From an uncultured Clostridia bacterium (GTDB lineage: Bacteria; Bacillota; Clostridia; Christensenellales; Borkfalkiaceae): a stretch of 64,000 bases of DNA. A program made the translations under genes and the position numbers. Shown here piece after piece: positions 1 to 11,573 of this stretch (position 1 is the first letter of the stretch; each line of letters opens with the position of its first letter). The stretch is taken from contig CALVHS010000030.1 in NCBI GenBank assembly GCA_944328665.1, positions 12,951-76,950 of the forward strand. The letters are read 5' to 3'. A model generated the notes under the pieces. The model had not been told where the DNA came from, made no database searches, and saw nothing but the letters and a program-made list of their open reading frames with translations.

Positions 1-1634
1 TCGCCTCGCTGATCGGCATCATTCAGCCCGCCTTTTCGCGCATCTTTCTGGATCGGCTCTTGACGGGGGAAAATCCGGACTGGCTGATCCCGTTTTTGGT
101 CGCGTTCGGCTTGCTGGCGGCGGTACAGCTCCTCATGGCATGGATACAAGCGGTGTGGTCGCTGCGGATCGACGGAAAGATGTCGGTGACGGGCAGCGCG
201 ACGTTCATGTGGAAGGTGCTGCGCATGCCGATGGTGTTTTTTTCGCAGCGCATGGCGGGGGACATCCAGCAGAGGGAGGGTTCGAATGCCAGCATTGCGG
301 GTTCCCTCGTCAACACGTTTGCCCCGCTCGTATTGGATACGGTCATGATGGTGTTTTACCTCGTCGTCATGCTCCGTTACAGCTGGATATTGACGCTCGT
401 CGGCATTGGCTCTATCCTCATCAACATGATCGTGGCGCGGCTGATATCGAAAAAGCGCGTCAACATCACCCGCGTGCAGATGCGCGACGCGGGCAAACTT
501 GCGGGCGCGTCGGTCGCCGGCATCGAGATGATCGAAACGATCAAGGCGAGCGGCGCCGAAAACGGCTATTTTGAAAAGTGGGCGGGCTATCAGGCGAGCG
601 TCAACACGCAGAAGGTCAAATTTTCCCGCCTCAACCAATATCTCGGGCTGATCCCCATGTTCGTTTCGAGCCTTTCCAATACGGCGGTTCTGGTCCTCGG
701 CGTGTGGCTGACCATGCAGGGGCAGTTCACGGTCGGCATGGTCATGGCGTTCCAAGGATTTTTGAACTCCTTTACCGCCCCCGCCGAAAAGCTCATCTCC
801 GCCGGTCAGACCCTGCAGGAGATGCGCACGGAAATGGAGCGGGTAGAGGACGTGATGCAGTACCCGACGGACGTCGAATTCACGGACGAAGGGGAGGACG
901 CCGAATACGACAAACTCAGCGGGCTCGTGGAGATGAAAAACGTCACGTTCGGCTATTCCAAACTCGCCCCGCCGCTCATTGAAAATTTCAACCTCACGTT
1001 AAAGCCGGGGAGCCGCGTGGCGTTCGTAGGGCCGTCCGGGTGCGGAAAGTCCACCCTTTCCAAGCTGATCTCCGGGCTGTATCGGCCGTGGAGCGGCGAG
1101 ATCCTGTTTGACGGAAAACCGATCTCCGCCATCGACCGCAGCGTGTTTACGGGTTCTCTGGCGGTCGTCGACCAGGATATCATCCTCTTTGAAGATACCA
1201 TCGCCAACAACATCAAGATGTGGGACTCGTCCATCGAAGATTTCGAGATGATCATGGCGGCGCGCGACGCAAAACTGCACGAGGATATCATGCAGCGCGA
1301 GGGCGGGTATCAATATAAGATCACGGAAGGCGGCAAAGATTTTTCGGGCGGGCAGCGCCAACGTATAGAGATCGCCCGCGTTCTTGCGCAGGATCCGACC
1401 ATCATCATCATGGACGAGGCGACGAGCGCGCTCGATGCAAAGACGGAATACGAGGTCGTAAATTCCATCAAGGAGCGGGGGATCACCTGCATCGTCGTGG
1501 CGCACAGGCTGTCCACCGTGCGTGACTGTGACGAGATCATCGTCATGGATAACGGCAGGGTGGTGGAACGCGGCACCCACGAAGAGCTCTATGCCTTGGG
1601 GGGCGCGTATACAAAACTTGTTTCCAGCGATTAA
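1..1634 (+). CDS. Bacteriocin/RiPP-type ABC exporter, permease + ATPase (N-terminus lies upstream of the window)
   Basis: The frame is open from the window edge (first full codon at nt 3), so the listed TTG at 60 is internal. A hydrophobic TMD is followed by an NBD with Walker A GPSGCGKST, signature FSGGQRQR and Walker B IIIMDEATSALD. The stop lies 9 nt before the SD+ATG of a second ABC gene. Confidence 0.9.
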   Translation, partial: ASLIGIIQPAFSRIFLDRLLTGENPDWLIPFLVAFGLLAAVQLLMAWIQAVWSLRIDGKMSVTGSATFMWKVLRMPMVFFSQRMAGDIQQREGSNASIAGSLVNTFAPLVLDTVMMVFYLVVMLRYSWILTLVGIGSILINMIVARLISKKRVNITRVQMRDAGKLAGASVAGIEMIETIKASGAENGYFEKWAGYQASVNTQKVKFSRLNQYLGLIPMFVSSLSNTAVLVLGVWLTMQGQFTVGMVMAFQGFLNSFTAPAEKLISAGQTLQEMRTEMERVEDVMQYPTDVEFTDEGEDAEYDKLSGLVEMKNVTFGYSKLAPPLIENFNLTLKPGSRVAFVGPSGCGKSTLSKLISGLYRPWSGEILFDGKPISAIDRSVFTGSLAVVDQDIILFEDTIANNIKMWDSSIEDFEMIMAARDAKLHEDIMQREGGYQYKITEGGKDFSGGQRQRIEIARVLAQDPTIIIMDEATSALDAKTEYEVVNSIKERGITCIVVAHRLSTVRDCDEIIVMDNGRVVERGTHEELYALGGAYTKLVSSD

Positions 1635-1643
1635 GGAGAGCAT

Positions 1644-3854
1644 ATGGGCTGGTTCGACGAACAAATAAAACAGAGAAAACAGAACGACGACGAGATGTTT
1701 GCCGAGGCGTTTGCGGGGATCGCGGGCGCGGTGACGGGAGAAAAGCTCTCGGCGCTCGACAGCGGCGAGCAGAGGACGAAAAACGCCGTCGGCGAGATCT
1801 TGCGCTATTATCGCGTCAAGCCGTGCGAGGTGCCCGATTCTGTCAAGGACATCAACGAGCGGTTGGAATATCTGCTGCGGCCGCACGGGATCATGCGCCG
1901 TACGGTCAAGCTGGAAAAGGGGTGGTACAAAGAGGCGGTCGGCGCGATGCTGGCGATCAAAAGATCGGACGGGTCTGCGGTGGCGCTGCTTCCGTCCGGC
2001 TTCGCGGGCTATACCTATTTCGACAGCGAAAAGGGCAAGCGTGTGCGGATCGATCGCAAGACGCAGGCGCTGTTCGAGGAGGAAGCGATCGCCTTTTATC
2101 CTTCGTTTCCTCTCAAAAAGATCGGGATGAAAGATCTGGCGGTGCATATCGTCAAGTCTCTGTCTGTCGCCGACTTTTTGCTGATCGCCCTGGCGTCGCT
2201 GGCGGTCGCCCTGGTGGGCTTGCTGTCGCCGAAATTGACGAACCTGCTCTTTTCCGACGTTTTGGAGAGCGGCAGCCTGCGGCTTTTGACGGCGATCGCC
2301 GTCTTTATGATCTGCGTGTCCGTCTCGTCCCTCTTGATCGGCGGCATAAAGTCTTTGCTGATGGCGCGCATCAACACCAAGATGGGCCTGTCCGTGCAGG
2401 CGGCGACGATGATGCGCATCCTCTCCCTCCCCGCCGATTTTTTCAAAGGATACAGCGCGGGCGACCTCGCTTCGCGCGCAAGCAACGTGCAGTCGCTGTG
2501 CAACATGCTCATATCCACCGTGCTTTCCACGGGGCTTACTTCGGTCTTTTCCGTGGTATACATCGGGCAGATCTTCGCCTATGCGCCCGCATTGGTGGCG
2601 CCCGCGCTCTTGGTGATCGCGGCGACGATCGTCGTTTCCATCCTGACCACGTATGCGCAGCTGCGGGTGAGCAGGCAGCAGATGCAGCTCGGCGCGGAAG
2701 AAAGCGGCTTGACGTACGCCCTCATTTCGGGCGTGCAGAAGATCAAACTGGCGGGCGCGGAAAAGCGCGCTTTTGCCAAATGGGGGAATCAGTTTGCGAA
2801 GTCTGCGCGCCTCGAATACGATCCTCCCGCGTTTTTGAAGTTCAACAGCGTCATCACTTCCGCCGTTTCTATGGCGGGAACGATCGCGATGTATTATTTT
2901 GCGGTGAAGAGCGGCGTCAGCGTCGCCGATTACTATGCGTTCAACGTCGCGTACGGCATGGTCTCGGGCGCGTTCATGTCTTTGGCGAGCATCGCATTGA
3001 CGGCGGCGAACATCAAACCCGTCTTTGAAATGATCAAACCCATCCTCGACGCCTGTCCGGAAGTTTCGGAAGGGAAGCGCGTCATCGAGCGCCTTTCGGG
3101 CGGGATCGAGCTCAACAACGTGAGCTTCCGCTATAACGAGAACATGCCGCCCGTCGTGGATAACCTGTCGCTGAAGATCCGCCCGGGGCAGTATGTCGCG
3201 CTCGTGGGCGCGACCGGGTGCGGAAAATCTACCCTTATGCGCCTGATGCTCGGCTTTGAAACGCCGCAAAAGGGGGCGATCTACTATGACGGCAAAGATC
3301 TTTCGTCCATCGATCTCAAATCGCTGCGCCGCAAGATCGGGGTCGTCATGCAGAACGGAAAGCTGTTTTCGGGCGACGTGTTCTCCAATATCACGATCTC
3401 CGCGCCCTGGCTGACGCTGGACGACGCGTGGGAAGCCGCAGAACTCGCGGGCATCGCCGAAGATATCCGCCGCATGCCGATGGGGATGCACACGATCATC
3501 TCCGAAGGTTCCGGCGGGGTGTCCGGCGGGCAGCGGCAGCGCCTGATGATCGCCCGCGCGATCGCGCCGAAACCCAAGGTGCTGATGTTCGACGAGGCGA
3601 CGAGCGCGCTCGATAATTTGACGCAAAAGAGGGTCTCGGACAGCCTGGATCGGCTGAAATGTACGAGGATCGTGATCGCGCACAGGCTTTCCACCATCCG
3701 CAGCTGCGACCGTATTTTGTATTTGGAAGGCGGCAAGATCATTGAGGACGGCAATTATGAAGAACTGATCGCCAAAGACGGAAAATTTGCCGAACTTGTC
3801 GCTCGGCAGCGGTTGGACGATACGGAATATGTGGGAAAGACGACGCTTTTTTGA
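1644..3854 (+). CDS. Second ABC exporter subunit, permease + ATPase with a ~165-aa N-terminal extension
   Basis: SD aaggagag precedes the ATG. The protein has an N-terminal soluble segment, then a TMD, then an NBD (GATGCGKST, VSGGQRQR, LMFDEATSALD). The paired arrangement with the upstream ABC gene resembles two-ABC NHLM/Nif11-type export sets (family names recalled, not searched). Confidence 0.9.
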   Translation: MGWFDEQIKQRKQNDDEMFAEAFAGIAGAVTGEKLSALDSGEQRTKNAVGEILRYYRVKPCEVPDSVKDINERLEYLLRPHGIMRRTVKLEKGWYKEAVGAMLAIKRSDGSAVALLPSGFAGYTYFDSEKGKRVRIDRKTQALFEEEAIAFYPSFPLKKIGMKDLAVHIVKSLSVADFLLIALASLAVALVGLLSPKLTNLLFSDVLESGSLRLLTAIAVFMICVSVSSLLIGGIKSLLMARINTKMGLSVQAATMMRILSLPADFFKGYSAGDLASRASNVQSLCNMLISTVLSTGLTSVFSVVYIGQIFAYAPALVAPALLVIAATIVVSILTTYAQLRVSRQQMQLGAEESGLTYALISGVQKIKLAGAEKRAFAKWGNQFAKSARLEYDPPAFLKFNSVITSAVSMAGTIAMYYFAVKSGVSVADYYAFNVAYGMVSGAFMSLASIALTAANIKPVFEMIKPILDACPEVSEGKRVIERLSGGIELNNVSFRYNENMPPVVDNLSLKIRPGQYVALVGATGCGKSTLMRLMLGFETPQKGAIYYDGKDLSSIDLKSLRRKIGVVMQNGKLFSGDVFSNITISAPWLTLDDAWEAAELAGIAEDIRRMPMGMHTIISEGSGGVSGGQRQRLMIARAIAPKPKVLMFDEATSALDNLTQKRVSDSLDRLKCTRIVIAHRLSTIRSCDRILYLEGGKIIEDGNYEELIAKDGKFAELVARQRLDDTEYVGKTTLF

Positions 3855-3969
3855 AAATTTTTTCAAAAAAGCCGTCCATCGGCGGCGCTCGCACGTATTA
3901 ATAATGGAAAGAAAAAACCGCTTCGGGAAAATTTTCGCGGGCAGATAAAGATCAGACACGGAGACAAAA

Positions 3970-4177
3970 ATGACGGAAGCAGACGAACAGCCGCTCGCAA
4001 AGGCGGCAAGATCCTCCGAAAAACCGATGGCTCTCGCCCAAGAAAACGGTATGTTCGGACGCGTTTGCAGCGGCGCGCAGATGCTGTCCGCCCCCCCCCG
4101 GGATATGTAGATCGTGCAAGTATAAGGCGTATGAAAAGGGACTGCGGGTGCGCAATGCCCCCGCAAATATAAAATAA
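3970..4177 (+). pseudogene. Decayed precursor-peptide copy (truncated leader plus Cys-less tail)
   Basis: The 46-codon ORF 3970-4110 reads ..PLAKAARSSEKPMALAQENGMF.., which parallels the leader segment EKARAAKSAKELMSLAKENGVEM. Nt 4115-4177 read CKYKAYEKGLRVRNAPANIK*, the conserved tail with its Cys residues replaced. The middle of the gene is missing. Confidence 0.7.
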
Positions 4178-4195
4178 GATATCGGAGGATACAAA

Positions 4196-4612
4196 ATGGA
4201 AAACGAGGAACTGATGGAAAAGGCAAGGGCGGCAAAGAGTGCCAAGGAGCTGATGTCTCTCGCCAAAGAAAACGGCGTGGAGATGACGGAAGAAGAGGCG
4301 CAGGCGTACTTTTCGCAGCTCAACAAGAGCGGCGAACTTGCCGACGACGAACTCGATTCGGTCGCGGGCGGCGGCTGCCATTCGGGCGGCGGCAAGCTGG
4401 TGGTCACCGTAGGCACCCAAAAGGACTGCTTTGTCTGCAAACACTGCGGCGCAACGGCGGAGAAAAACTTTGTCCCCGAGGGGCTCATGGCGATCACGGG
4501 GTATTCCCACTACTGCAAGGGGAAGAATATTATCTCCAACTGCGGTAACTGCAAATATTGCAACTACGAAAAAGGGCTTTGGGTGTGCAACAACCCCGTC
4601 AACATGAAGTAA
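4196..4612 (+). CDS. RiPP precursor P1: Nif11-like leader (aa 1-60, ..ELDSVAGGG) plus 78-aa core with 9 Cys
   Basis: SD ggagga precedes the ATG. The leader MENEELMEKARAAKSAKELMSLAKENGVEMTEEEAQAYFSQLNKSGELADDELDSVAGGG has the Nif11-leader look and a double-glycine end. The core contains CFVCKHC and CGNCKYC knuckles and the tail EKGLWVCNNPVNMK. Confidence 0.88.
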   Translation: MENEELMEKARAAKSAKELMSLAKENGVEMTEEEAQAYFSQLNKSGELADDELDSVAGGGCHSGGGKLVVTVGTQKDCFVCKHCGATAEKNFVPEGLMAITGYSHYCKGKNIISNCGNCKYCNYEKGLWVCNNPVNMK

Positions 4613-4633
4613 ATCATATCGGAGGATTTTAAG

Positions 4634-5011
4634 ATGGACGAAAAACTCATTGAAAGGGCAAGGGCGGCAAAGAGTGCCAAGGAGCTGATGTCTCTCGCCA
4701 AAGAAAGCGGCACGGAGATAACGGAAGAGGAGGCGCAGGCGTACTTTGCGCAGCTCAACAAGAGCGGCGAACTTGCCGACGAGGAGTTGGATAACGTCGC
4801 GGGCGGCGGCTGCCACGCAAAGGACGGCAGATTGGTGGTCACGATCCATTACAGCTGCGAACAGTTCGTCTGTAAGTCTTGCGGGCGTTCGGGCAAACAT
4901 ACCCACCACGTGGGCAACATCGTGACCGTTTACCCCGCCTGCGAGATCTGTAAATACTGCACCCATGAAAAGGGCTTGTGGCTTTGCAACAATCCCGCCA
5001 ATATAAAATAA
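4634..5011 (+). CDS. RiPP precursor P2: Nif11-like leader (aa 1-59) plus 66-aa core with 8 Cys
   Basis: SD ggagga precedes the ATG. The leader is nearly identical to P1 at the DNA level. The core contains CEQFVCKSC and CEICKYC, and the tail is EKGLWLCNNPANIK. Confidence 0.88.
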   Translation: MDEKLIERARAAKSAKELMSLAKESGTEITEEEAQAYFAQLNKSGELADEELDNVAGGGCHAKDGRLVVTIHYSCEQFVCKSCGRSGKHTHHVGNIVTVYPACEICKYCTHEKGLWLCNNPANIK

Positions 5012-5028
5012 AAAAGGAGAATACGAAA

Positions 5029-5463
5029 ATGGAAAACAAGGAACTTTTACAAAAGGCAAAAGAAGCGAAGTCTGCCGAAGAACTGATGACGATTGCCAAA
5101 GAAAACGGGGTGGAACTGACGGAAGAGGAGGCGTCGGAATATTTCGCGCGGCTGAATGTAAGCGGCGAACTTGCCGACGAGGAGTTGGATAACGTCGCGG
5201 GCGGCGGCTGCCAGACGAGCGTCAACGGAGAAAAATATACGGTCGTCACGTCGGGGCAGCGCTGTTTCAACGGCGGGTATGAAAACAACATCGAGACCGA
5301 ATTTTCCGTGAGCGGCAACGCCGTCAAGGTGCCCGCCTATACGACGGATCATTTGTCGCTGCGCTGTACGTGGTCAGATTTTTCGTCGGAAGGCTGCTGC
5401 GGATATTGCCGCCATCTGCAATTTAAGGGCGCCACGGGCTATTGCGGAAAATCTGCCAAGTAA
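5029..5463 (+). CDS. RiPP precursor P3: same leader (aa 1-60) plus a divergent 84-aa core with 7 Cys
   Basis: The internal ATG at 5029 is preceded by SD aaggaga, so the listed upstream start at 4978 overlaps the P2 tail and is unlikely. The leader ends ELDNVAGGG. The core (CQTSVNGEKYTVV...GCCGYCRHLQFKGATGYCGKSAK) lacks the P1/P2 tail motif. Confidence 0.85.
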   Translation: MENKELLQKAKEAKSAEELMTIAKENGVELTEEEASEYFARLNVSGELADEELDNVAGGGCQTSVNGEKYTVVTSGQRCFNGGYENNIETEFSVSGNAVKVPAYTTDHLSLRCTWSDFSSEGCCGYCRHLQFKGATGYCGKSAK

Positions 5464-5491
5464 AGAGCGGACGGCACGCAGGGCGGTGATT

Positions 5492-5607
5492 TGCTCTGCA
5501 AATTCTGCTGCGAGAGCGCTGCAGGCGTCAGATGCCGCCTGCAGCGACTGTAAATATTGCCCTCACAAAAAGGCCTGTGGTCCTGCGATGACACTGCAAA
5601 TATAAAT
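5492..5607 (+). pseudogene. Leaderless 3' remnant of a P1/P2-type core
   Basis: The remnant reads ..ACSDCKYCPHKK then shifts frame. Restoring one nt gives KKGLWSCDDTANI, which parallels CKYC..EKGLW.CNNP.NIK. No leader or start codon is present. Confidence 0.6.
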
Positions 5608-5622
5608 AAGGAAATCAAAACA

Positions 5623-6045
5623 ATGGCAAACAGCGAACTTATGGAAAAGGCAAAGCGGCAAAAAGCGCCTAAGAACTGATGACGATCGCCAAAGGAAACG
5701 GCATGGAACTTTCGGAAGAGGAGGCGGCAGCCTGCTTTGCGCAGCTCAACAAGAGCGGCGAACTTGCCGACGAGGAATTGGATAACGTCGCGGGCGGCGG
5801 CTGCGTGGCGACAGGGTTGTCGAAAATTGACGCGAATAACGAAGCCGGGCGACAGGATAACCATCACAGATGGTTATGAAAACAAACGGTGTAATATGCA
5901 GGAATGCAAAAACGTGATATTCGTGGTCGATCGCGTCGACGAATATAGTGTGCATTATCACTGCGAAAAGTGCGGGCGCGAGAGACTTAACGCGACATGT
6001 TATATTGAAATATTTATAAAGCATTGTTGCAACTCGGCATTTTAA
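5623..6045 (+). pseudogene. Fourth precursor copy, disrupted by a leader frameshift, an in-frame TAA and a core frameshift
   Basis: The ATG at 5623 gives MANSELMEKAK, then the frame slips. The continuing leader frame carries a TAA at 5670-5672 before ELMTIAKGNGMELSEEEAAACFAQLNKSGELADEELDNVAGGGC. After GGGC the plausible Cys-rich core (..ITITDGYENKRCNMQECKN...HYHCEKCG...KHCCNSAF*) continues in another frame to 6045. Confidence 0.7.
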
Positions 6046-6049
6046 GATT

Positions 6050-7447
6050 ATGAAATACATTCTCAATCCGAACGTCGCCCTGCGCAGTTGGCGGCTGGTG
6101 CCCTATGCTTACTACATACGGCATCGCCGCGACGCGCTGGGGCTGAGACAGGAAGAATTCGAACTGTTGAAAAAGTGCGACGGCGAATATGAATTTTCCG
6201 CCGAAGAGGAGGCCGTGCTCCGCCCGCTGGCGGAGCGCGGGCTTGCCTTCCCCGCAAAGGGCGGCGAGCGGCTCGGCGAGTGGCAAAGGCACAGGATTTG
6301 CGACAACCGCTACTTTCCGTCGTTGAGCTGGATGATCACGGGCAAGTGCAACTTTAACTGCCTGCATTGCTTTAACGCGGCGGACAACGCCCCGTTGATG
6401 AGCGAATTTTCTTGGGAAGAGGCGGAAAAGCTCATCGAAGAGGCGGAAAAATGCGGTATCAACGCCTTCACCCTCACGGGCGGAGAACCCATGCTGCACA
6501 AGCATTTTTTTGACATCGTCGAAAGCATCTACGCGCACGGCATGTATGTGCGGGAACTCAACACCAACGGGCATTTCATCACGCCCGAAAGCCTTGCCCG
6601 CCTGAAAGCCGTTGACGGCGATATCCGCATCAAGATCTCTTTCGACGGGATCGGTCATCACGATTGGCTCCGCAACCGCAAGGGGGCGGAAGAGGAGGCG
6701 CTGCGGGCGATCCGTCTCTCCGTCGGAGAGGGCTTTTTTACGCAGGTGCAGACGAACGTGCACCGTAAAAACCTCGATACCTTATTGCAGACGGCGGAGC
6801 GGATGGACGAGATGGGTGTGGAGCATATGCGCATCATCCGCACGACGGAAGCGCCCCGCTGGCTGCAAAACGCGGACGGCGCCACGCTCGATATCGGCGA
6901 ATATTACGATCGCATGGCAGAATTTTCACATGCGTATGCGCAAGTTCCGCACAAAATGAGCGTCGATATTTGGCAGTACGCGATGCTGTATCCCGCAGAG
7001 AGGGCGTACCGCGCCCGCCCCGTGGAGTACGCGGAGGGAGAGTTCCGCACCACCTTTCCCGTATGCCGCGGCAATCGCGGAATGGTCTCCGTAGACGCGA
7101 ACGGCGACATCGTTCCCTGCCATCAACTGTCCGGGTATTACGCGAAGCACGGCCTTTATATCGGGAACGTCAAAAAGGAAGGGCTGCAGCGCCTTTTGCA
7201 GAGCGGCGCTTATCTCGGGGAGGTATGTGCCACGCTGGGTACTTTGGCGCAGCGGAACGAGACGTGCGCTTCCTGCCGGTATTTCCGCTACTGCGGGGGC
7301 GGCTGCCGCGCCATCGCGCTCGCCTTTACGGGCGATAAGATGGGCAAAGACCCCGCCAAGTGTATCTTTTTCAAGCAGGGCTATTACGAGAACCTTGTGC
7401 GCGCCATGGGCGACTGGCGTGACCTTGCCCCCGTTGCGCGCGGGTGA
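6050..7447 (+). CDS. Radical SAM / SPASM-domain peptide maturase with a ~95-aa N-terminal (RRE-like) extension
   Basis: The CxxxCxxC motif is CNFNCLHC (Cys100/104/107), followed by a GGEP-type motif (TLTGGEP). A full SPASM pattern can be read directly: C-x12-G-x4-C (CRGNRGMVSVDANGDIVPC), then CASCRYFRYCGGGC (Cx2Cx5Cx3C), then a later KC. The N-terminal segment before the rSAM core is typical of precursor-recognition domains. Confidence 0.9.
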   Translation: MKYILNPNVALRSWRLVPYAYYIRHRRDALGLRQEEFELLKKCDGEYEFSAEEEAVLRPLAERGLAFPAKGGERLGEWQRHRICDNRYFPSLSWMITGKCNFNCLHCFNAADNAPLMSEFSWEEAEKLIEEAEKCGINAFTLTGGEPMLHKHFFDIVESIYAHGMYVRELNTNGHFITPESLARLKAVDGDIRIKISFDGIGHHDWLRNRKGAEEEALRAIRLSVGEGFFTQVQTNVHRKNLDTLLQTAERMDEMGVEHMRIIRTTEAPRWLQNADGATLDIGEYYDRMAEFSHAYAQVPHKMSVDIWQYAMLYPAERAYRARPVEYAEGEFRTTFPVCRGNRGMVSVDANGDIVPCHQLSGYYAKHGLYIGNVKKEGLQRLLQSGAYLGEVCATLGTLAQRNETCASCRYFRYCGGGCRAIALAFTGDKMGKDPAKCIFFKQGYYENLVRAMGDWRDLAPVARG

Positions 7448-7596: not shown

Positions 7597-7794
7597 ATGG
7601 ACAAACGTTTGAAACGGCTGTTTGATTTTCAGCGTTTTGCCGGCAACAGACGGCTTGCGGCGCTCATTGAGAGGGCCGAGTTTTCGCATGCCGAATCGCT
7701 TTCCGACGAGGATTTGGAAAAGGTCAGCGCGGCAGGGGATATCGATACGGCGCGCATCGGCAAGGAAGGCGAAGGGCAAAATGGCAACGAGTGA
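7597..7794 (+). CDS. Small hypothetical protein (65 aa) with a leader-like ..SLSDEDLEKVSAAG.. motif
   Basis: SD aagggg lies 6 nt before the ATG. The composition looks coding. The 3' end overlaps the next gene's ATG by 14 nt. Confidence 0.6.
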   Translation: MDKRLKRLFDFQRFAGNRRLAALIERAEFSHAESLSDEDLEKVSAAGDIDTARIGKEGEGQNGNE

Positions 7795-8275
7795 ACATAC
7801 AATGGAGCAGATCTATAGGGAATACAGCGGCAAAGTGCTGCGGTATGCGCGCTCCAAGATATCCAACCCGCAGGATGCGGAAGATATCTGTTCCGCCGTG
7901 TTTTTAAAGATACAGCGCGGCCTGCCCCTCTATGACAGCGCAAGGTCGTCGCTTTCGACATGGATCTATTCGATCGCGCACAATGCCGTCGTCGATTTTT
8001 ACAGAAGGGCGCATGCGGCGGAACTATTGGATGAAGAGATCGCCTGTACGGAGGACGGCTTCGAAGATATCTATCGCGACGAGATGCTGGAAGCGCTCGC
8101 CGCCGCGCTGGAACGCCTGCCGCCGCGTGAAAGTGACGTCATCATATTGCATTACTATACGGGGAAAACGCTGAAAGAGATCGCGGATTTAATGAAAATG
8201 TCCTATTCAAACATGAAATCTCTGCACAAAAAGGCGCTTTCGCGGCTGAAAAAATTGCTGCAATTTGCGATATGA
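7781..8275 (+). CDS. ECF-type sigma-70 family RNA polymerase sigma factor (164 aa)
   Basis: A region 2-like segment (DAEDICSAVFLKIQRGL..WIYSIAHNAVVDFYRR) and a region 4 HTH (LPPRESDVIILHYYTGKTLKEIADLMKMSYSNMKSLHKKALSRLK) are present. The start is taken at the internal ATG at 7781 (MATSEHTMEQIY), because the longer listed ORF is Arg-rich upstream. Confidence 0.85.
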   Translation: MATSEHTMEQIYREYSGKVLRYARSKISNPQDAEDICSAVFLKIQRGLPLYDSARSSLSTWIYSIAHNAVVDFYRRAHAAELLDEEIACTEDGFEDIYRDEMLEALAAALERLPPRESDVIILHYYTGKTLKEIADLMKMSYSNMKSLHKKALSRLKKLLQFAI

Positions 8276-8411
8276 CCGATGCGGCGCGCCTTAGCCGTCG
8301 ATGGCGCGTGGGCACTTTTGCCCGGCCGCGGACATTGGCGGTTTTTTTGTGCCCTCTTTTTTGAAGAAGGGCAAAGGGCCGGATGTGCCCGTCGTCCGTT
8401 TTTTTGTCCGC

Positions 8412-8477: not shown

Positions 8478-9257
8478 ATGTTGAGCAAAGTAGAGATCTG
8501 CGGTGTAGATACGGCAGGGTTGCCCCTCTTATCCGCAAAGGAAAGCGACGAATTGATGAGGAGGCTCAAGGAAGGGGATCAAGAAGCGCGCAAACGGTTT
8601 ATAGTGGGCAATATGCGGCTCGTTTTGTCTCTCGTCAAGCGTTTTTGGGCGAAAAATGCCAACGCCGACGACGTGTTTCAAGCGGGCTGCATCGGTCTTT
8701 TAAAGGCGATCGACGGGTTTGATCCCAACCTCGGCGTGCGGTTTTCCACGTACGGGGTGCCGATGATCTTAGGGGAGATCAAGCGCTATTTGCGGGACGG
8801 GAATTCGCTGCGGGTATCGAGGAGCATCCGCGACACGGCGTATAAAGTCCTAAAAGCGCGCGAAAGCATCGAAAGCCGCGACGAGGAGGCGACCATCGAA
8901 AAGATCGCCGCCGAGATGAACGTGCGCGAAAAAGAGGTGGTCTACGCCTTGGATGCGATCTCCGATCCTGTATCCCTTTTCGATCCTGTCTATAACAAAT
9001 CGGGGGACACTCTCCTCTTGATGGATCAGATCTACGACGAAAAGAACAACGACGAGGTGTGGACGGAACATGCCGCCTTGGCGGAGGCGATGGCGCGCCT
9101 CGGGGAAAGGGAGCGCAAGATCTTGTTTTTACGCTACTTTGAGGGCAAGACGCAGACGGAGATCTCCGGTGAAGTGGGCATTTCGCAGGCGCAGGTATCA
9201 CGCCTCGAAAAGAGCGCGATCGACACCATCCGCCGCGATATCGCCTATGAATTTTAA
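8478..9257 (+). CDS. sigG: Sporulation sigma factor SigG
   Basis: The protein has an N-terminal KVEICGVDT signature. GNMRLVLSLVKRF, FSTYGVPMILGEIKRYLRD and ISQAQVSRLEKSAI closely parallel B. subtilis SigG along its full length. Confidence 0.9.
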   Translation: MLSKVEICGVDTAGLPLLSAKESDELMRRLKEGDQEARKRFIVGNMRLVLSLVKRFWAKNANADDVFQAGCIGLLKAIDGFDPNLGVRFSTYGVPMILGEIKRYLRDGNSLRVSRSIRDTAYKVLKARESIESRDEEATIEKIAAEMNVREKEVVYALDAISDPVSLFDPVYNKSGDTLLLMDQIYDEKNNDEVWTEHAALAEAMARLGERERKILFLRYFEGKTQTEISGEVGISQAQVSRLEKSAIDTIRRDIAYEF

Positions 9258-9414: not shown

Positions 9415-9765
9415 TCAGGCAAAATATTTGCCGAGCATGCGTTCGATCTCTTCGTTGGCGATGCCGGCGACGGGCGCAAACGCATTTTTTTCTTCCGTTT
9501 TTGCGGCCTCCGTCTTTTCGGCGGCGGGCGCGGCGGCGGGTTCGGCGGCGGGCGGCGCAAGCGCCGCAGCGAGCGTGCGCAGCTTCGCCGCGGCCGATAA
9601 AAGTTCGGGCGGCGTCATGCCGAAGATACGCACGCTGCGGAATGGTTCGCTCTGCCAAAGGGCGTCCGCATCCCCGCTTTCCAGGCGGGCGAGGGCGTCG
9701 AGCAAAGTCTGCGGTTTGTTTGCGCCCATTGCTCTCAGCAGGGCGACGAGCAATAAGATCTCCAT
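9415..9765 (-). CDS. Hypothetical protein (116 aa) with an Ala/Pro-rich linker
   Basis: SD gggagg lies 5 nt before the ATG on the minus strand. The composition is non-shadow-like at both ends. Confidence 0.6.
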   Translation of the reverse strand: MEILLLVALLRAMGANKPQTLLDALARLESGDADALWQSEPFRSVRIFGMTPPELLSAAAKLRTLAAALAPPAAEPAAAPAAEKTEAAKTEEKNAFAPVAGIANEEIERMLGKYFA

Positions 9766-9842
9766 AAAAAGCCTCCCGTTTGGTTGTCGGTGCCGCGCCG
9801 CCGCGCATATAATGCTATTATGAAACGATCGCGGAGGTGACC

Positions 9843-10112
9843 ATGAAAGATTTCAATTCTTATCGGCAGGAAGAAAACAAAGAGGAAGAGAAGGACGTTT
9901 CCGATCTTGCCGAGCGGCTGACGGCGGCGTTTGCGGGCAAAGGGGAAGGGGACGTGCTGCGGGCGATCTACGCCGAGGCGGAAAAGAGCCGCAAGGCGGG
10001 CACCCTTACCGACGCGGAACTGGATCGATTTTACGCGGTGCTTTCTCCCATGCTCGGCGGCGCGCAGCGCAAAAAACTCGCGGCGGTACTTGCCCGCCTC
10101 AAAAAGATGTAG
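9843..10112 (+). CDS. Hypothetical protein (89 aa)
   Basis: SD ggagg lies 6 nt before the ATG at 9843. The sequence is charged and helical-looking. The 3' end overlaps the convergent desulfurase gene by 14 nt. Confidence 0.6.
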   Translation: MKDFNSYRQEENKEEEKDVSDLAERLTAAFAGKGEGDVLRAIYAEAEKSRKAGTLTDAELDRFYAVLSPMLGGAQRKKLAAVLARLKKM

Positions 10113-11250
10113 CTTGCCGTTCGATCTCTTCCGCCGCCCGTAAAAACGCGGCGCATTCTCTCGGGGTGTTGAAAGGGGAAAGGCTCGCGCGCACCAATCC
10201 GCCGTCGGCGGTGCCCAGTGCCCTGTGCATGCGCGGCGCGCAGTGCAGCCCGCCGCGCACGGCGATGCGGTAGCGGTCGGAGAGCGCTTGCGCAAACAAC
10301 TCCGATTGCAGCGCGCGGCTGCGGAAGGCGACGATGCCGCAGGGGTTGGGTGCGGAAAACACCTCGATCCCTTCGATGGCTGCAAGCCCATGGCAGAGCG
10401 TGCCGCTCATGCGCAGGATCTTTTCCTTGCTGCCGCGCATATGCGCCGTCAGCCAAAGCGCCCCTTCCGCGAGGGAGACGGCGGCGGGGTAATTGAGGGT
10501 GCCCGCTTCCAGTCGGTCGGGATAGAAGGCGGGCATATCGGGGTCGTCGCTTACGCTTCCCGTCCCGCCGTAAAGGAAGGGCGCGGGGGAAAACCGCTCG
10601 GAGAGGAGCAGCGCGCCGGAGCCGGCGATGCCGTGCAGCCCTTTGTGTCCCGCCATGCACAGCGCGTCGATGCCCGACTTTTTCATGTTGACGGGGATGT
10701 GCCCGCATGCCTGTGCGCCGTCGCAGAGCAGCAGGACTTTTTGCGGCAGGGCGGCGCGTACGGCGGCGGGATCGATCGCCGCGCCCGTCACGTTGGAGGA
10801 GAGGGTGAATACCGCCGCGGCGGTGTCTTCGCGTGCGGCGCGGGCGAAGGCAGCGGGCGGCACCGTGCCGTTTTCCAGCCCGAGCAGCGTCAGGCGTATC
10901 CTGCCCTTCCGCTCCAAAAAGAAGAGCGGGCGCAGCACGGAATTGTGTTCCATGACGGTGGAAATGACGTGCGGCGGCGTTCCGGCGGGCTGCGCGTCGG
11001 CAAAGCCGAAGATGGCGGCGTTGAGCGCTTCCGTACAATTTTTGGTGAAGATCACCCGTTCGTTTCCGTATCCTCCGAAAAATTCGTTCAGCAGGGTGCG
11101 GCAGCGCAATATGTTTTCCGCAAGGGCGACGGAGAGGGCGTGCCCGCTCCGCCCCGGATTGGCGTTGGCGGTGCGCACCGCCTCGCAGGCGGCGGAAAGG
11201 ACGGAAGGCGGTTTGCGGCCGCCCGTGGCGGCGTTGTCAAAATAGATCAT
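10099..11250 (-). CDS. Class V aminotransferase / cysteine desulfurase family protein
   Basis: The protein begins MIYFDNAATGG and contains TKNCTEALN and the HKGLHG PLP-lysine context, with a full-length class V fold pattern. Confidence 0.88.
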   Translation of the reverse strand: MIYFDNAATGGRKPPSVLSAACEAVRTANANPGRSGHALSVALAENILRCRTLLNEFFGGYGNERVIFTKNCTEALNAAIFGFADAQPAGTPPHVISTVMEHNSVLRPLFFLERKGRIRLTLLGLENGTVPPAAFARAAREDTAAAVFTLSSNVTGAAIDPAAVRAALPQKVLLLCDGAQACGHIPVNMKKSGIDALCMAGHKGLHGIAGSGALLLSERFSPAPFLYGGTGSVSDDPDMPAFYPDRLEAGTLNYPAAVSLAEGALWLTAHMRGSKEKILRMSGTLCHGLAAIEGIEVFSAPNPCGIVAFRSRALQSELFAQALSDRYRIAVRGGLHCAPRMHRALGTADGGLVRASLSPFNTPRECAAFLRAAEEIERQATSF

Positions 11251-11255
11251 GCTTT

Positions 11256-11263
11256 ATTGTATG
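11256..11263 (-). promoter_or_regulatory. CATACAAT element 5 nt upstream of the desulfurase ATG (-10-like; leaderless candidate)
   Basis: The minus strand reads gccgCATACAATaaagcATG and no SD is present. The geometry is identical to that upstream of yunB. Confidence 0.3.
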
Positions 11264-11315
11264 CGGCTGCGGCGCGCTTTATCGCGCCTTTTTCTGTCTG
11301 CAAAGGAGAAAATTT

Positions 11316-11573
11316 ATGCAATCTTATCTGGCGGTGTTCCGTTCCCGCACGCAGGCGCTCGACTGCGCCGCGCGGCTGCGGCAGGCGGGGGTGTCCGCTT
11401 CCGCCGTCGCCACGCCCAAAGAGGCGAAGGCGGGCTGCGGGCTTTCGGTCAAGATCGGCGCATTCGGCATGGCGCAGGCAAAACGCGTCGTGGCGGGAGG
11501 AAGGTATTCCTCGTTTGTCGGTTTTTTTTGTATGGAGACGGCGTGCGGGAGAGACCTGATCTATCCCGCTTGA
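11316..11573 (+). CDS. DUF3343-like small protein (putative Se/S carrier-like)
   Basis: SD aaaggag precedes the ATG. The AVFRSRTQAL.. opening and CG motif match what I recall for the DUF3343 family, which is often next to cysteine desulfurases. Confidence 0.7.
   Translation: MQSYLAVFRSRTQALDCAARLRQAGVSASAVATPKEAKAGCGLSVKIGAFGMAQAKRVVAGGRYSSFVGFFCMETACGRDLIYPA

Follow-up and report, generated by a model that had tools for sequence, protein, structure and literature searches.

A conserved junction cysteine as probable target of an unassigned radical-SAM/SPASM enzyme in Nif11-leader precursor loci of gut Clostridia

The DNA stretch analysed here (64,000 nucleotides of contig CALVHS010000030.1, assembly GCA_944328665.1, positions 12,951 to 76,950 of the forward strand; hereafter the window) originates from an uncultured Clostridia bacterium and opens with two ATP-binding cassette (ABC) exporter genes, an array of precursor genes and one radical S-adenosylmethionine (rSAM) enzyme carrying a SPASM domain. 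We are highly confident that this cluster constitutes a maturation and export system of the radical-SAM type for peptides that are made by ribosomes and then post-translationally modified (RiPPs). The precursors combine a common Nif11-type leader with cores that are unrelated between families. The only core feature common to these families is a Cys at the second position after the double glycine of the leader (+2), which is probably the site of rSAM action. Radical-SAM RiPPs of the Nif11/NHLM kind are already known; judged from sequence, what appears to be new is a maturase outside every curated family tested, together with cores unlike the described classes.

Precursors, cores and the radical-SAM enzyme

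The comparison set comprises 80 related loci anchored on the rSAM gene and labelled by L-numbers, 71 of which carry sequence upstream of rSAM and 37 at least 8 kb of it. A leader-bearing precursor is found at most 6 kb from the rSAM gene in 67 of the 71 loci, and the ABC pair is present in 31 of the 37, a conserved neighbourhood that argues against a chance association. The order ABC1, ABC2, array of 1–10 precursors, rSAM is kept in dozens of gut Clostridia. The original prediction, made from the letters of the window alone, had placed all genes of the locus on the + strand and described a dual-ABC exporter of NHLM type, three intact and three decayed precursor genes with Nif11-like double-glycine leaders, and one rSAM enzyme with a complete seven-Cys SPASM motif. 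All of these elements were recovered, every gene on the + strand and exactly where it had been placed, and the survey of related genomes that it had called for returned the rSAM enzyme, the gene order and relatives of the W3 core. Each outcome that it had named as refuting was checked, and no result spoke against it.

The three intact precursor genes are denoted W1, W2 and W3. W1 (4196–4612, +) encodes a 60-aa Nif11-type leader ending in VAGG↓GC, where the arrow marks the expected cleavage site, and a 78-aa core with 9 Cys. It has 245 homologous clusters, and its AlphaFold2 (AF2) model shows three leader helices and core beta-hairpins at a mean predicted local distance difference test (pLDDT) score of 72.9. 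W2 (4634–5011, +), 57% identical to W1, belongs to the same core family and has a 66-aa core with 8 Cys. In W3 (5029–5463, +) the same leader precedes a core of a different family (84 aa, 7 Cys; pattern CQTxVxGxxYTVVTS...CGxCxHLxFKGxxGYC), relatives of which occur in L025, L037 and L070. Core sizes of 66–84 aa and 7–9 Cys had been predicted in agreement with these values. Against the Nif11-leader model TIGR03798 (curated cut-off 32.3 bits), W1, W2 and W3 score 31.9, 31.4 and 36.0 bits (E = 6e-9 to 1.7e-7), i.e. the N-terminus of one precursor lies above the cut-off and those of the other two 0.4–0.9 bits under it. The leader also matches a solved “Nif11 domain-containing protein” (PDB 9zn4_A, E = 2e-5).

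All three leaders end in VAGG↓G, and the leader end ELSDDELDNVAGG places L at −12, S at −11, E at −8, L at −7, V at −4 and G at −2 and −1, in exact double-glycine register. The double-glycine consensus is established knowledge for leaders processed by C39 peptidases, and the register thus puts cleavage between the second and the third Gly. A lipoprotein (lipobox) reading of the GGGC sequence with its G/S-rich linker was rejected, as there is no hydrophobic signal peptide, position −3 is Gly and the double-glycine register fits.

The decayed copies, located by hidden Markov model (HMM) and tblastn searches, flank the three intact genes. Remnant A (3997–4174, +) retains a leader piece at 3997–4053 (leader HMM E = 0.0035) and a C-terminal core piece at 4106–4174 in different frames, with tblastn matches to intact precursors over AKAARSSEKPMALAQENGM and CRSCKYKAYEKGLRVRNAPANIK. 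Remnant B (5473–5604, +) consists of frameshifted C-terminal core fragments of the W1/W2 family, matched over ACSDCKYCPHKK and QKGLWSCDDTANI. The third, pseudogene P4 (5623–6045, +), represents a third core family in the window besides those of W1/W2 and W3; it is broken by two frameshifts plus an in-frame stop in the leader, and an intact ortholog is found in L004 (9572–9982). The lesions of P4 are shared by the independent metagenome contigs L081 and L082, which across the pseudogene are 99.2–99.5% identical to the window without gaps. An assembly error is thereby ruled out and the decay is biological.

The junction between leader and core is the point at which the otherwise unrelated precursors converge. 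Of 174 cores taken from the rSAM-anchored loci, 149 have Cys at +2. An independent sample, drawn with the leader only from 1.84 billion representatives, shows Cys at +2 in 104 of 131 cores and at +1 in a further 15. Across both samples ~80–86% of cores have Cys at +2, compared with a background Cys frequency in cores of 9.7%. The junction reads GG↓G-C, or GG↓A/S/T/K/R/N/D-C where the Gly run is two residues long; at such two-Gly junctions +1 is taken by a non-Gly residue and Cys stays at +2. The leader-only sample includes 17 cores that have no Cys besides the junction Cys, and cores of this type sit beside the same type of enzyme, for example in the L030 array. As enzymes that are 56–86% identical occur next to unrelated cores, they must recognise what these substrates share, namely the leader and the x-Cys junction. 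This shared Cys was missing from the original prediction, as were the wide spread of the family and the zinc-ribbon look of many cores.

Across the 80 loci, cores of different families show no relationship to one another, and one array often mixes several families. The motif CxxC occurs 304 times, 2.9-fold more often than in shuffled cores (105.6 ± 8.9), with at least one copy in 155 of 177 unique cores and at least two in 104 of 177; the shortest cores are bare CxxC..CxxC units of 31–45 aa. These paired motifs give most cores a putatively zinc-ribbon-like character, outside any curated family. A Pfam scan of ten diverse cores returned nothing over threshold, Zn_ribbon_3, IBR, GATA, DZR and B-box appearing at 11–17 bits. 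Searches of NCBIfam, Pfam and PDB sequences gave no core match, and with the W1-family profile and W3 the leader but not the core was matched among PDB sequences. A Foldseek search of PDB with the whole-precursor model gave a best E of 0.57, the helical leader dominating the matches. The view that the cores do not resemble known RiPP classes is thus sustained, no description of them having been found in the literature searched either. In other cores there is one Cys only; a Gly/Ser-rich linker and then a beta-rich domain come after it. The array at L030 2267–4595 consists almost entirely of cores with CGGGG/CGGS linkers that lead into beta-rich domains with one to three Cys, and their N-termini look lipoprotein-like, yet stand behind a Nif11 leader. 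A PapB-like C-x3-D ranthionine motif, suggested by CHxKDGRL at the start of W1/W2-family cores, was discarded, since W1 has CHSGGGKL and the Asp is missing there and in the other core families.

The rSAM/SPASM enzyme (6050–7447, +) matches PF04055 with 72.1 bits and the SPASM model PF13186 with 28.4 bits. Among 83 homologs the CxxxCxxC Cys (C100, C104 and C107) are invariant and eight C-terminal Cys are conserved, seven of which form the SPASM pattern (C339, C357, C406, C409, C415, C419 and C438), the eighth being C393. None of the NCBIfam equivalogs is reached, every score lying far under its cut-off. The best HMM match is heme b synthase AhbD (133.8 bits vs a cut-off of ~500), and NirJ (107.4 of 515 bits) and TIGR04053 are also among the top NCBIfam matches. 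RiPP maturase models score 101.3 of 625 bits (sactipeptide maturase StsB, NF045574), 73.6 of 340 bits (ranthipeptide maturase PapB, NF047865) and 80.2 of 725 bits (nif11-class maturase 3, TIGR04103).

The AF2 model of the enzyme (pLDDT 90.6, predicted template modelling score 0.90) comprises a confidently modelled N-terminal strand/helix domain, the rSAM barrel and the SPASM domain. The N-terminal domain (residues 1–85: three strands, helix, strand, helix, strand) appears to resemble a RiPP recognition element (RRE). Best matches in Foldseek are SkfB (E = 1.3e-15), PqqE, CteB, SuiB (template modelling (TM) score 0.63 over ~480 columns) and the anaerobic sulfatase maturase anSME (TM 0.54–0.70). 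The alignments to CteB and SuiB span 466–488 columns, near the whole query, so that the N-terminal domain is probably included. The likeness to anSME is generic at the level of fold, and in sequence it is limited to the SPASM region (E ~3e-4). The predicted fold supports a leader-binding RiPP maturase, whichever reaction it may catalyse. An alternative grouping with non-RiPP SPASM enzymes, which the original prediction had named among the outcomes that would speak against it, is disfavoured by the low AhbD score, by the RiPP maturases nearest in predicted fold and by the adjoining precursors. It should be noted that some related loci encode a further rSAM/SPASM enzyme that shares 28% identity with the one above, lacks an NCBIfam assignment and is not present in the window (L005 12146–14462, L009 12146–14532, L032 11397–13654, L006 and L048). 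It has Nif11-leader precursors of its own, with Gly-rich CxC repeat cores such as NCLCVVGGGGS..CACVVGGGG..CACAMAGDG.

Export, regulation and the limits of the cluster

ABC1 (1–1634, +) is open at the left edge of the window, which holds the 3′ 543 codons of an NHLM-type peptidase/permease/ATPase subunit. It matches TIGR03796 (NHLM_micro_ABC1) with 708.7 bits over profile positions 168–709, the cut-off being 853.3 bits and the gene being cut by the window edge, and it also matches PF00664 and PF00005. As the alignment begins at position 168, the missing 167 positions would correspond to the C39 domain, predicted to lie upstream of the window. The ortholog in L003 (92% identical), which is of full length, scores 978.6 bits against TIGR03796, above the 853.3-bit cut-off, and contains Peptidase_C39 (PF03412, 119.8 bits). 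ABC2 (1644–3854, +) starts 10 nt past the ABC1 stop and is the NHLM-type permease/ATPase subunit without peptidase domain, above the cut-off of its own model (TIGR03797, 748 > 709.4 bits). The position of a HlyD-like partner falls beyond the window edge and was judged from related loci, where a 159-aa protein upstream of ABC1 matches the HlyD-type model TIGR03794 (cut-off 156.2 bits) at positions 1–47 only, with 43 bits.

The cluster had been delimited to 1–7447. Its content in that range stands, but it extends to ~8300 and includes two overlooked genes, a small open reading frame (ORF) and a sigma factor of the extracytoplasmic function (ECF) type. The small ORF (7597–7794, +; 65 aa) has no match in Pfam or NCBIfam. 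Towards its C-terminus it imitates the end of the leader (LSDEDLEKVSAA↓G), AA replacing GG: hhalign pairs the segment LSDDELExVNAAG with the final 17 positions of the leader (probability 78%, E = 1.8e-5), and the double-glycine register is kept, Ala-Ala at −2/−1 being followed by a short, acidic and variable tail. The N-terminal motif LFDYQRFxxNxRL is conserved. The ECF-type sigma-70 factor (7802–8275, +) matches TIGR02937 with 105.8 bits as well as Sigma70_r2 and r4. The small ORF occurs in 30 of the 80 loci, the sigma factor in 31, in varying position, and both together in 29. The pair is found after rSAM, between ABC2 and the array or, at one locus, upstream; as it shifts position yet stays with the cluster, it is considered part of it. 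The small ORF is possibly a partner or regulator of the sigma factor, and its leader-like end may serve the C39 peptidase as a substrate or decoy, through which the sigma factor would be controlled.

A recurrent non-coding element is found in related loci. It consists of an A/T-rich tract, a TTAGCC-type box, 16–17 nt of spacer and CGTATAAA, and resembles ECF promoters with −10 CGTA elements of the SigW/SigX/SigM type. The full form is found at ~19 sites in ~17 loci, a count that leaves out four minus-strand matches and duplicate overlapping ones; every one of these sites lies on the + strand and immediately upstream of a precursor array or the small ORF (for example L005 9450–9500, L013 9492–9540, L025 6174–6225, L027 634 and 4234, L077 202 and 2189). 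Other matches to the loose pattern fall within genes and look like chance. The motif precedes arrays as well as the small-ORF/sigma pair and sometimes occurs twice per locus, which suggests a putative autoregulated sigma regulon. In the window the promoter-like element (3855–3900, +) lies directly after ABC2 as an A/T-rich tract followed by CGTATTA at 3894–3900, where it may serve the same function. A generic sigma-70 promoter scan returned four sites vs 3.0 ± 1.6 in shuffles, hence no excess. In addition, putative anti-sigma-type genes were read from the sequence of some related loci, a SpoIIAB-like anti-sigma kinase being located near the cluster in nine and a STAS-type anti-anti-sigma protein in six (examples at L015 18–443 and L023 4727–5059).

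Terminator-like hairpins at 8324–8343 and 8380–8398 end the unit between the sigma factor gene and sigG. The latter encodes the sporulation sigma factor SigG directly downstream, past both hairpins (8478–9257; NF006071, 371.3 bits vs a cut-off of 372), and its presence identifies the host as a spore-forming member of the Clostridia. Further downstream, GC content rises to 0.64–0.67 at 9500–11500 compared with ~0.57 elsewhere; this stretch overlaps an ORF on the − strand (10099–11250) that reads as a class-V aminotransferase/cysteine-desulfurase-like protein. Rfam detected no RNA element inside the cluster, its sole match in the window being a T-box leader (RF00230, 48284–48531, 104.2 bits).

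Proposed maturation path and alternatives

In the preferred scheme the rSAM enzyme would dock the Nif11 leader on its N-terminal domain and then modify the junction Cys, which is favoured as the modification site because it is the only residue common to all substrates. On Cys-rich RiPPs, SPASM enzymes most commonly form thioethers, and the most likely reaction would be an S–C thioether from the junction thiol. The acceptor may be the +1 residue just before it, at whose alpha-carbon a thiomorpholine-type sactionine would arise, or a more distant site; a local thioether to the +1 alpha-carbon would explain why Cys is fixed while nearly any residue is accepted at +1. The distal CxxC Cys would probably bind zinc or form disulfides. 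Subsequently, the C39 domain of ABC1 would cut after GG, and ABC1/ABC2 would export a product starting with Gly-Cys. From the conserved promoter, the precursor–rSAM(–small ORF–sigma) operon is likely driven by the ECF sigma factor, whose activity the leader-mimic small protein may couple to the C39 exporter. We assign this complete chain, i.e. leader-guided modification of the junction Cys, C39 cleavage, export and sigma control, a probability of about 0.45.

Several observations weigh against the chain or parts of it. Between 9 and 14% of cores have no Cys near the junction. A Pfam search with residues 1–97 of the rSAM enzyme gave no RRE or PqqD match at E ≤ 1, and the top HMM matches are heme-pathway enzymes (AhbD and NirJ), though far under their cut-offs. 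As all eight C-terminal Cys are conserved, both auxiliary clusters may be fully ligated; the sactisynthase CteB would then differ in having an open site that binds the substrate Cys. Sequence and predicted fold alike do not discriminate thioether formation from other SPASM reactions. The window copy of the promoter motif is weak, having a longer spacer and a weaker upstream box, and fails the strict pattern. No immunity gene was seen at the locus, which leaves a bacteriocin role unsupported.

A different type of reaction would be a non-cross-linking edit at or beside the junction Cys, such as conversion to C-alpha-formylglycine as by anSME, epimerisation or another local change, with the cores as independently folded cargo. 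The junction Cys as the only shared residue is equally compatible with such an edit, anSME is among the close structural matches (TM 0.54–0.70), and the eight conserved Cys recall fully ligated anSME-type SPASM domains. Still, the sulfatase-type motif C/S-x-P/A-x-R is not present in the cores, the junction context being GG-G-C-x, and the confinement of the anSME sequence likeness to the SPASM region counts in the same direction. To our knowledge, anSME lacks an RRE-like leader-binding domain, and a comparable edit on a precursor of Nif11 type is not known to us. We consider this reading unlikely. Roughly the same standing is given to a multi-bridge logic as in sacti- and ranthipeptides, in which many core Cys would form several thioethers, the junction Cys being the first donor and the CxxC Cys further donors rather than metal ligands. 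Cores with 5–12 Cys, the sactisynthases SkfB and CteB among the nearest folds and the weak HMM matches to StsB and PapB are in line with this logic. It is harder to reconcile with single-Cys cores beside enzymes 56–62% identical to that of the window, with the junction Cys alone being conserved between core families and with the arrangement of Cys in paired CxxC knuckles at 2.9 times the shuffled expectation; moreover, the relevant family cut-offs are all missed widely, and no sacti or SCIFF core known to us resembles those described here.

The autonomous look of many cores, expressed in zinc-ribbon-like patterns, sub-threshold Zn_ribbon matches and AF2 beta-hairpins, also permits the view that the mini-proteins are exported essentially unmodified, as zinc- or disulfide-bound class-II-like bacteriocins or signals, while the rSAM enzyme acts on a subset of them or on another substrate. 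The leader and ABC1 would suffice for cleavage and export. This is rather improbable, given that rSAM adjoins a precursor in 67 of 71 loci and remains 56–86% identical while the cores change completely; such a scheme also leaves the junction Cys without a role. That the enzyme is a cofactor- or heme-type SPASM enzyme placed beside a bacteriocin locus by chance can be dismissed almost entirely: the top NCBIfam matches are indeed AhbD (134 bits), TIGR04053 and NirJ, but the scores are 4–5x under the cut-offs, and the rSAM gene is surrounded by precursors, ABC exporters and a sigma factor, with no heme-pathway genes nearby. Moreover, the gene order with precursors is kept in at least 67 loci of many genera, and the predicted fold has a putative RRE-like domain of the sort present in SuiB and CteB. 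A splicease reading was rejected as well, YG being present in none of the three window cores and in 38 of 177 related cores, and TIGR04103 scoring as low as 80.2 of 725 bits.

Returning to leader-guided modification of the junction Cys, the locus may be an instance not of a conventional RiPP, where the core sets the chemistry, but of a more general path of tagging, modification and export, in which a single novel edit at the Gly-Cys junction is applied to thousands of unrelated folded mini-protein cargoes, both zinc-ribbon-like and single-Cys beta-rich, and the leader mimic links the sigma factor to the C39 peptidase. The products would then form a new class of secreted, N-terminally modified mini-proteins of gut Clostridia, a generalisation that we regard as doubtful though worth stating. 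Diversifying selection, such as antagonism or other interactions between cells would exert, is suggested by the expanding arrays, the turnover of cores and the pseudogenes.

Distribution, related systems and significance

A scan of one genome per species found the rSAM enzyme in at least 179 species genomes, mostly of Lachnospiraceae and Oscillospiraceae as well as unnamed Clostridia from gut samples. Its cultured hosts include Sporofaciens musculi, Petralouisia muris and Bacterium D16-36, which have short, single-precursor loci; the precursor of S. musculi (L007 9610–9939) has a 36-aa core. The enzyme has more than 1,669 homologous clusters; the best 120 are 58–99% identical, and none of these is named beyond “radical SAM protein”. 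The 62-aa leader alone retrieves 2,093 clusters at 50% identity from the 1.84 billion representatives, 725 of them at E ≤ 1e-10. No NCBIfam or Pfam family and no solved structure was found for the rSAM enzyme or the cores. A literature search, with most subscription journals outside its reach, returned no description of the rSAM family or the cores, and the family is not described in Haft 2010, a review of human-microbiome RaS-RiPPs, a compendium of rSAM enzymes or the Hungate1000 bacteriocin survey.

The closest known counterparts are the NHLP/Nif11 (N11P) systems with NHLM export, which likewise combine a double-glycine Nif11 leader, the TIGR03796 and TIGR03797 tandem, several hypervariable cores per locus and one maturase (Haft, Basu and Mitchell 2010, PMC2887384). 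In the characterised examples the maturase is a LanM, cyclodehydratase or splicease/epimerase enzyme, whereas the maturase here is an rSAM/SPASM enzyme without family and the cores are 30–100 aa long, CxxC-rich and marked by Cys at +2. The HlyD-like partner differs too, being reduced in related loci to 159 aa that cover the first 47 profile positions. Spliceotides come nearer in enzyme type, PlpX being an rSAM/SPASM enzyme that acts on precursors with Nif11/NHLP leaders (PMC11002830). Spliceases, however, depend on X-Tyr-Gly in the substrate and on PlpY, an RRE protein encoded apart from the enzyme (PMC11002830), while the putative RRE-like domain is fused to the rSAM enzyme in the present case.

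The predicted architecture of a putative RRE-like, an rSAM and a SPASM domain acting on Cys-containing substrates recalls that of SkfB, CteB, PapB and StsB. Unlike sacti- and ranthipeptides, the cores are far longer and CxxC-paired, some having one Cys, and they follow a Nif11 leader, with no SCIFF-type precursor present. QhpD, another rSAM/SPASM enzyme, installs Cys thioethers in the leader-bearing small protein QhpC, which later loses its leader in an ABC-linked pathway; QhpC is one conserved subunit of an enzyme, unlike arrays of hypervariable secreted cores. Prochlorosins follow the same combinatorial logic, as one promiscuous enzyme, ProcM, processes many unrelated cores per genome behind a conserved Nif11 leader. 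They differ in their lanthionine chemistry, which is performed by a LanM enzyme in marine cyanobacteria without rSAM, and no conserved junction Cys is known to us in prochlorosins. A chemical parallel for the proposed local thioether is provided by the enteropeptins, in which radical-SAM chemistry forms a thiomorpholine through a thioether between the thiol of a Cys and the alpha-carbon of the residue directly before it (PMC12395415). Enteropeptins are short peptides (MKG-Orn-C-PPS) from Enterococcus, and the link to the present system is by analogy only. Their cluster encodes arginase and methyltransferase steps in addition.

In summary, a family present in at least 179 species genomes, with a leader that marks more than 2,000 precursor clusters, has no curated model or structure and, in the literature searched, no publication. 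As the data point to one residue, Cys +2, its modification is directly testable. Should a local junction edit on unrelated folded domains prove true, RiPP logic would extend to a mini-protein library and the enzyme would be a portable N-terminal tagging catalyst. The combined expansion and decay of the arrays suggest that the products are fast-evolving secreted effectors in the gut ecosystem.

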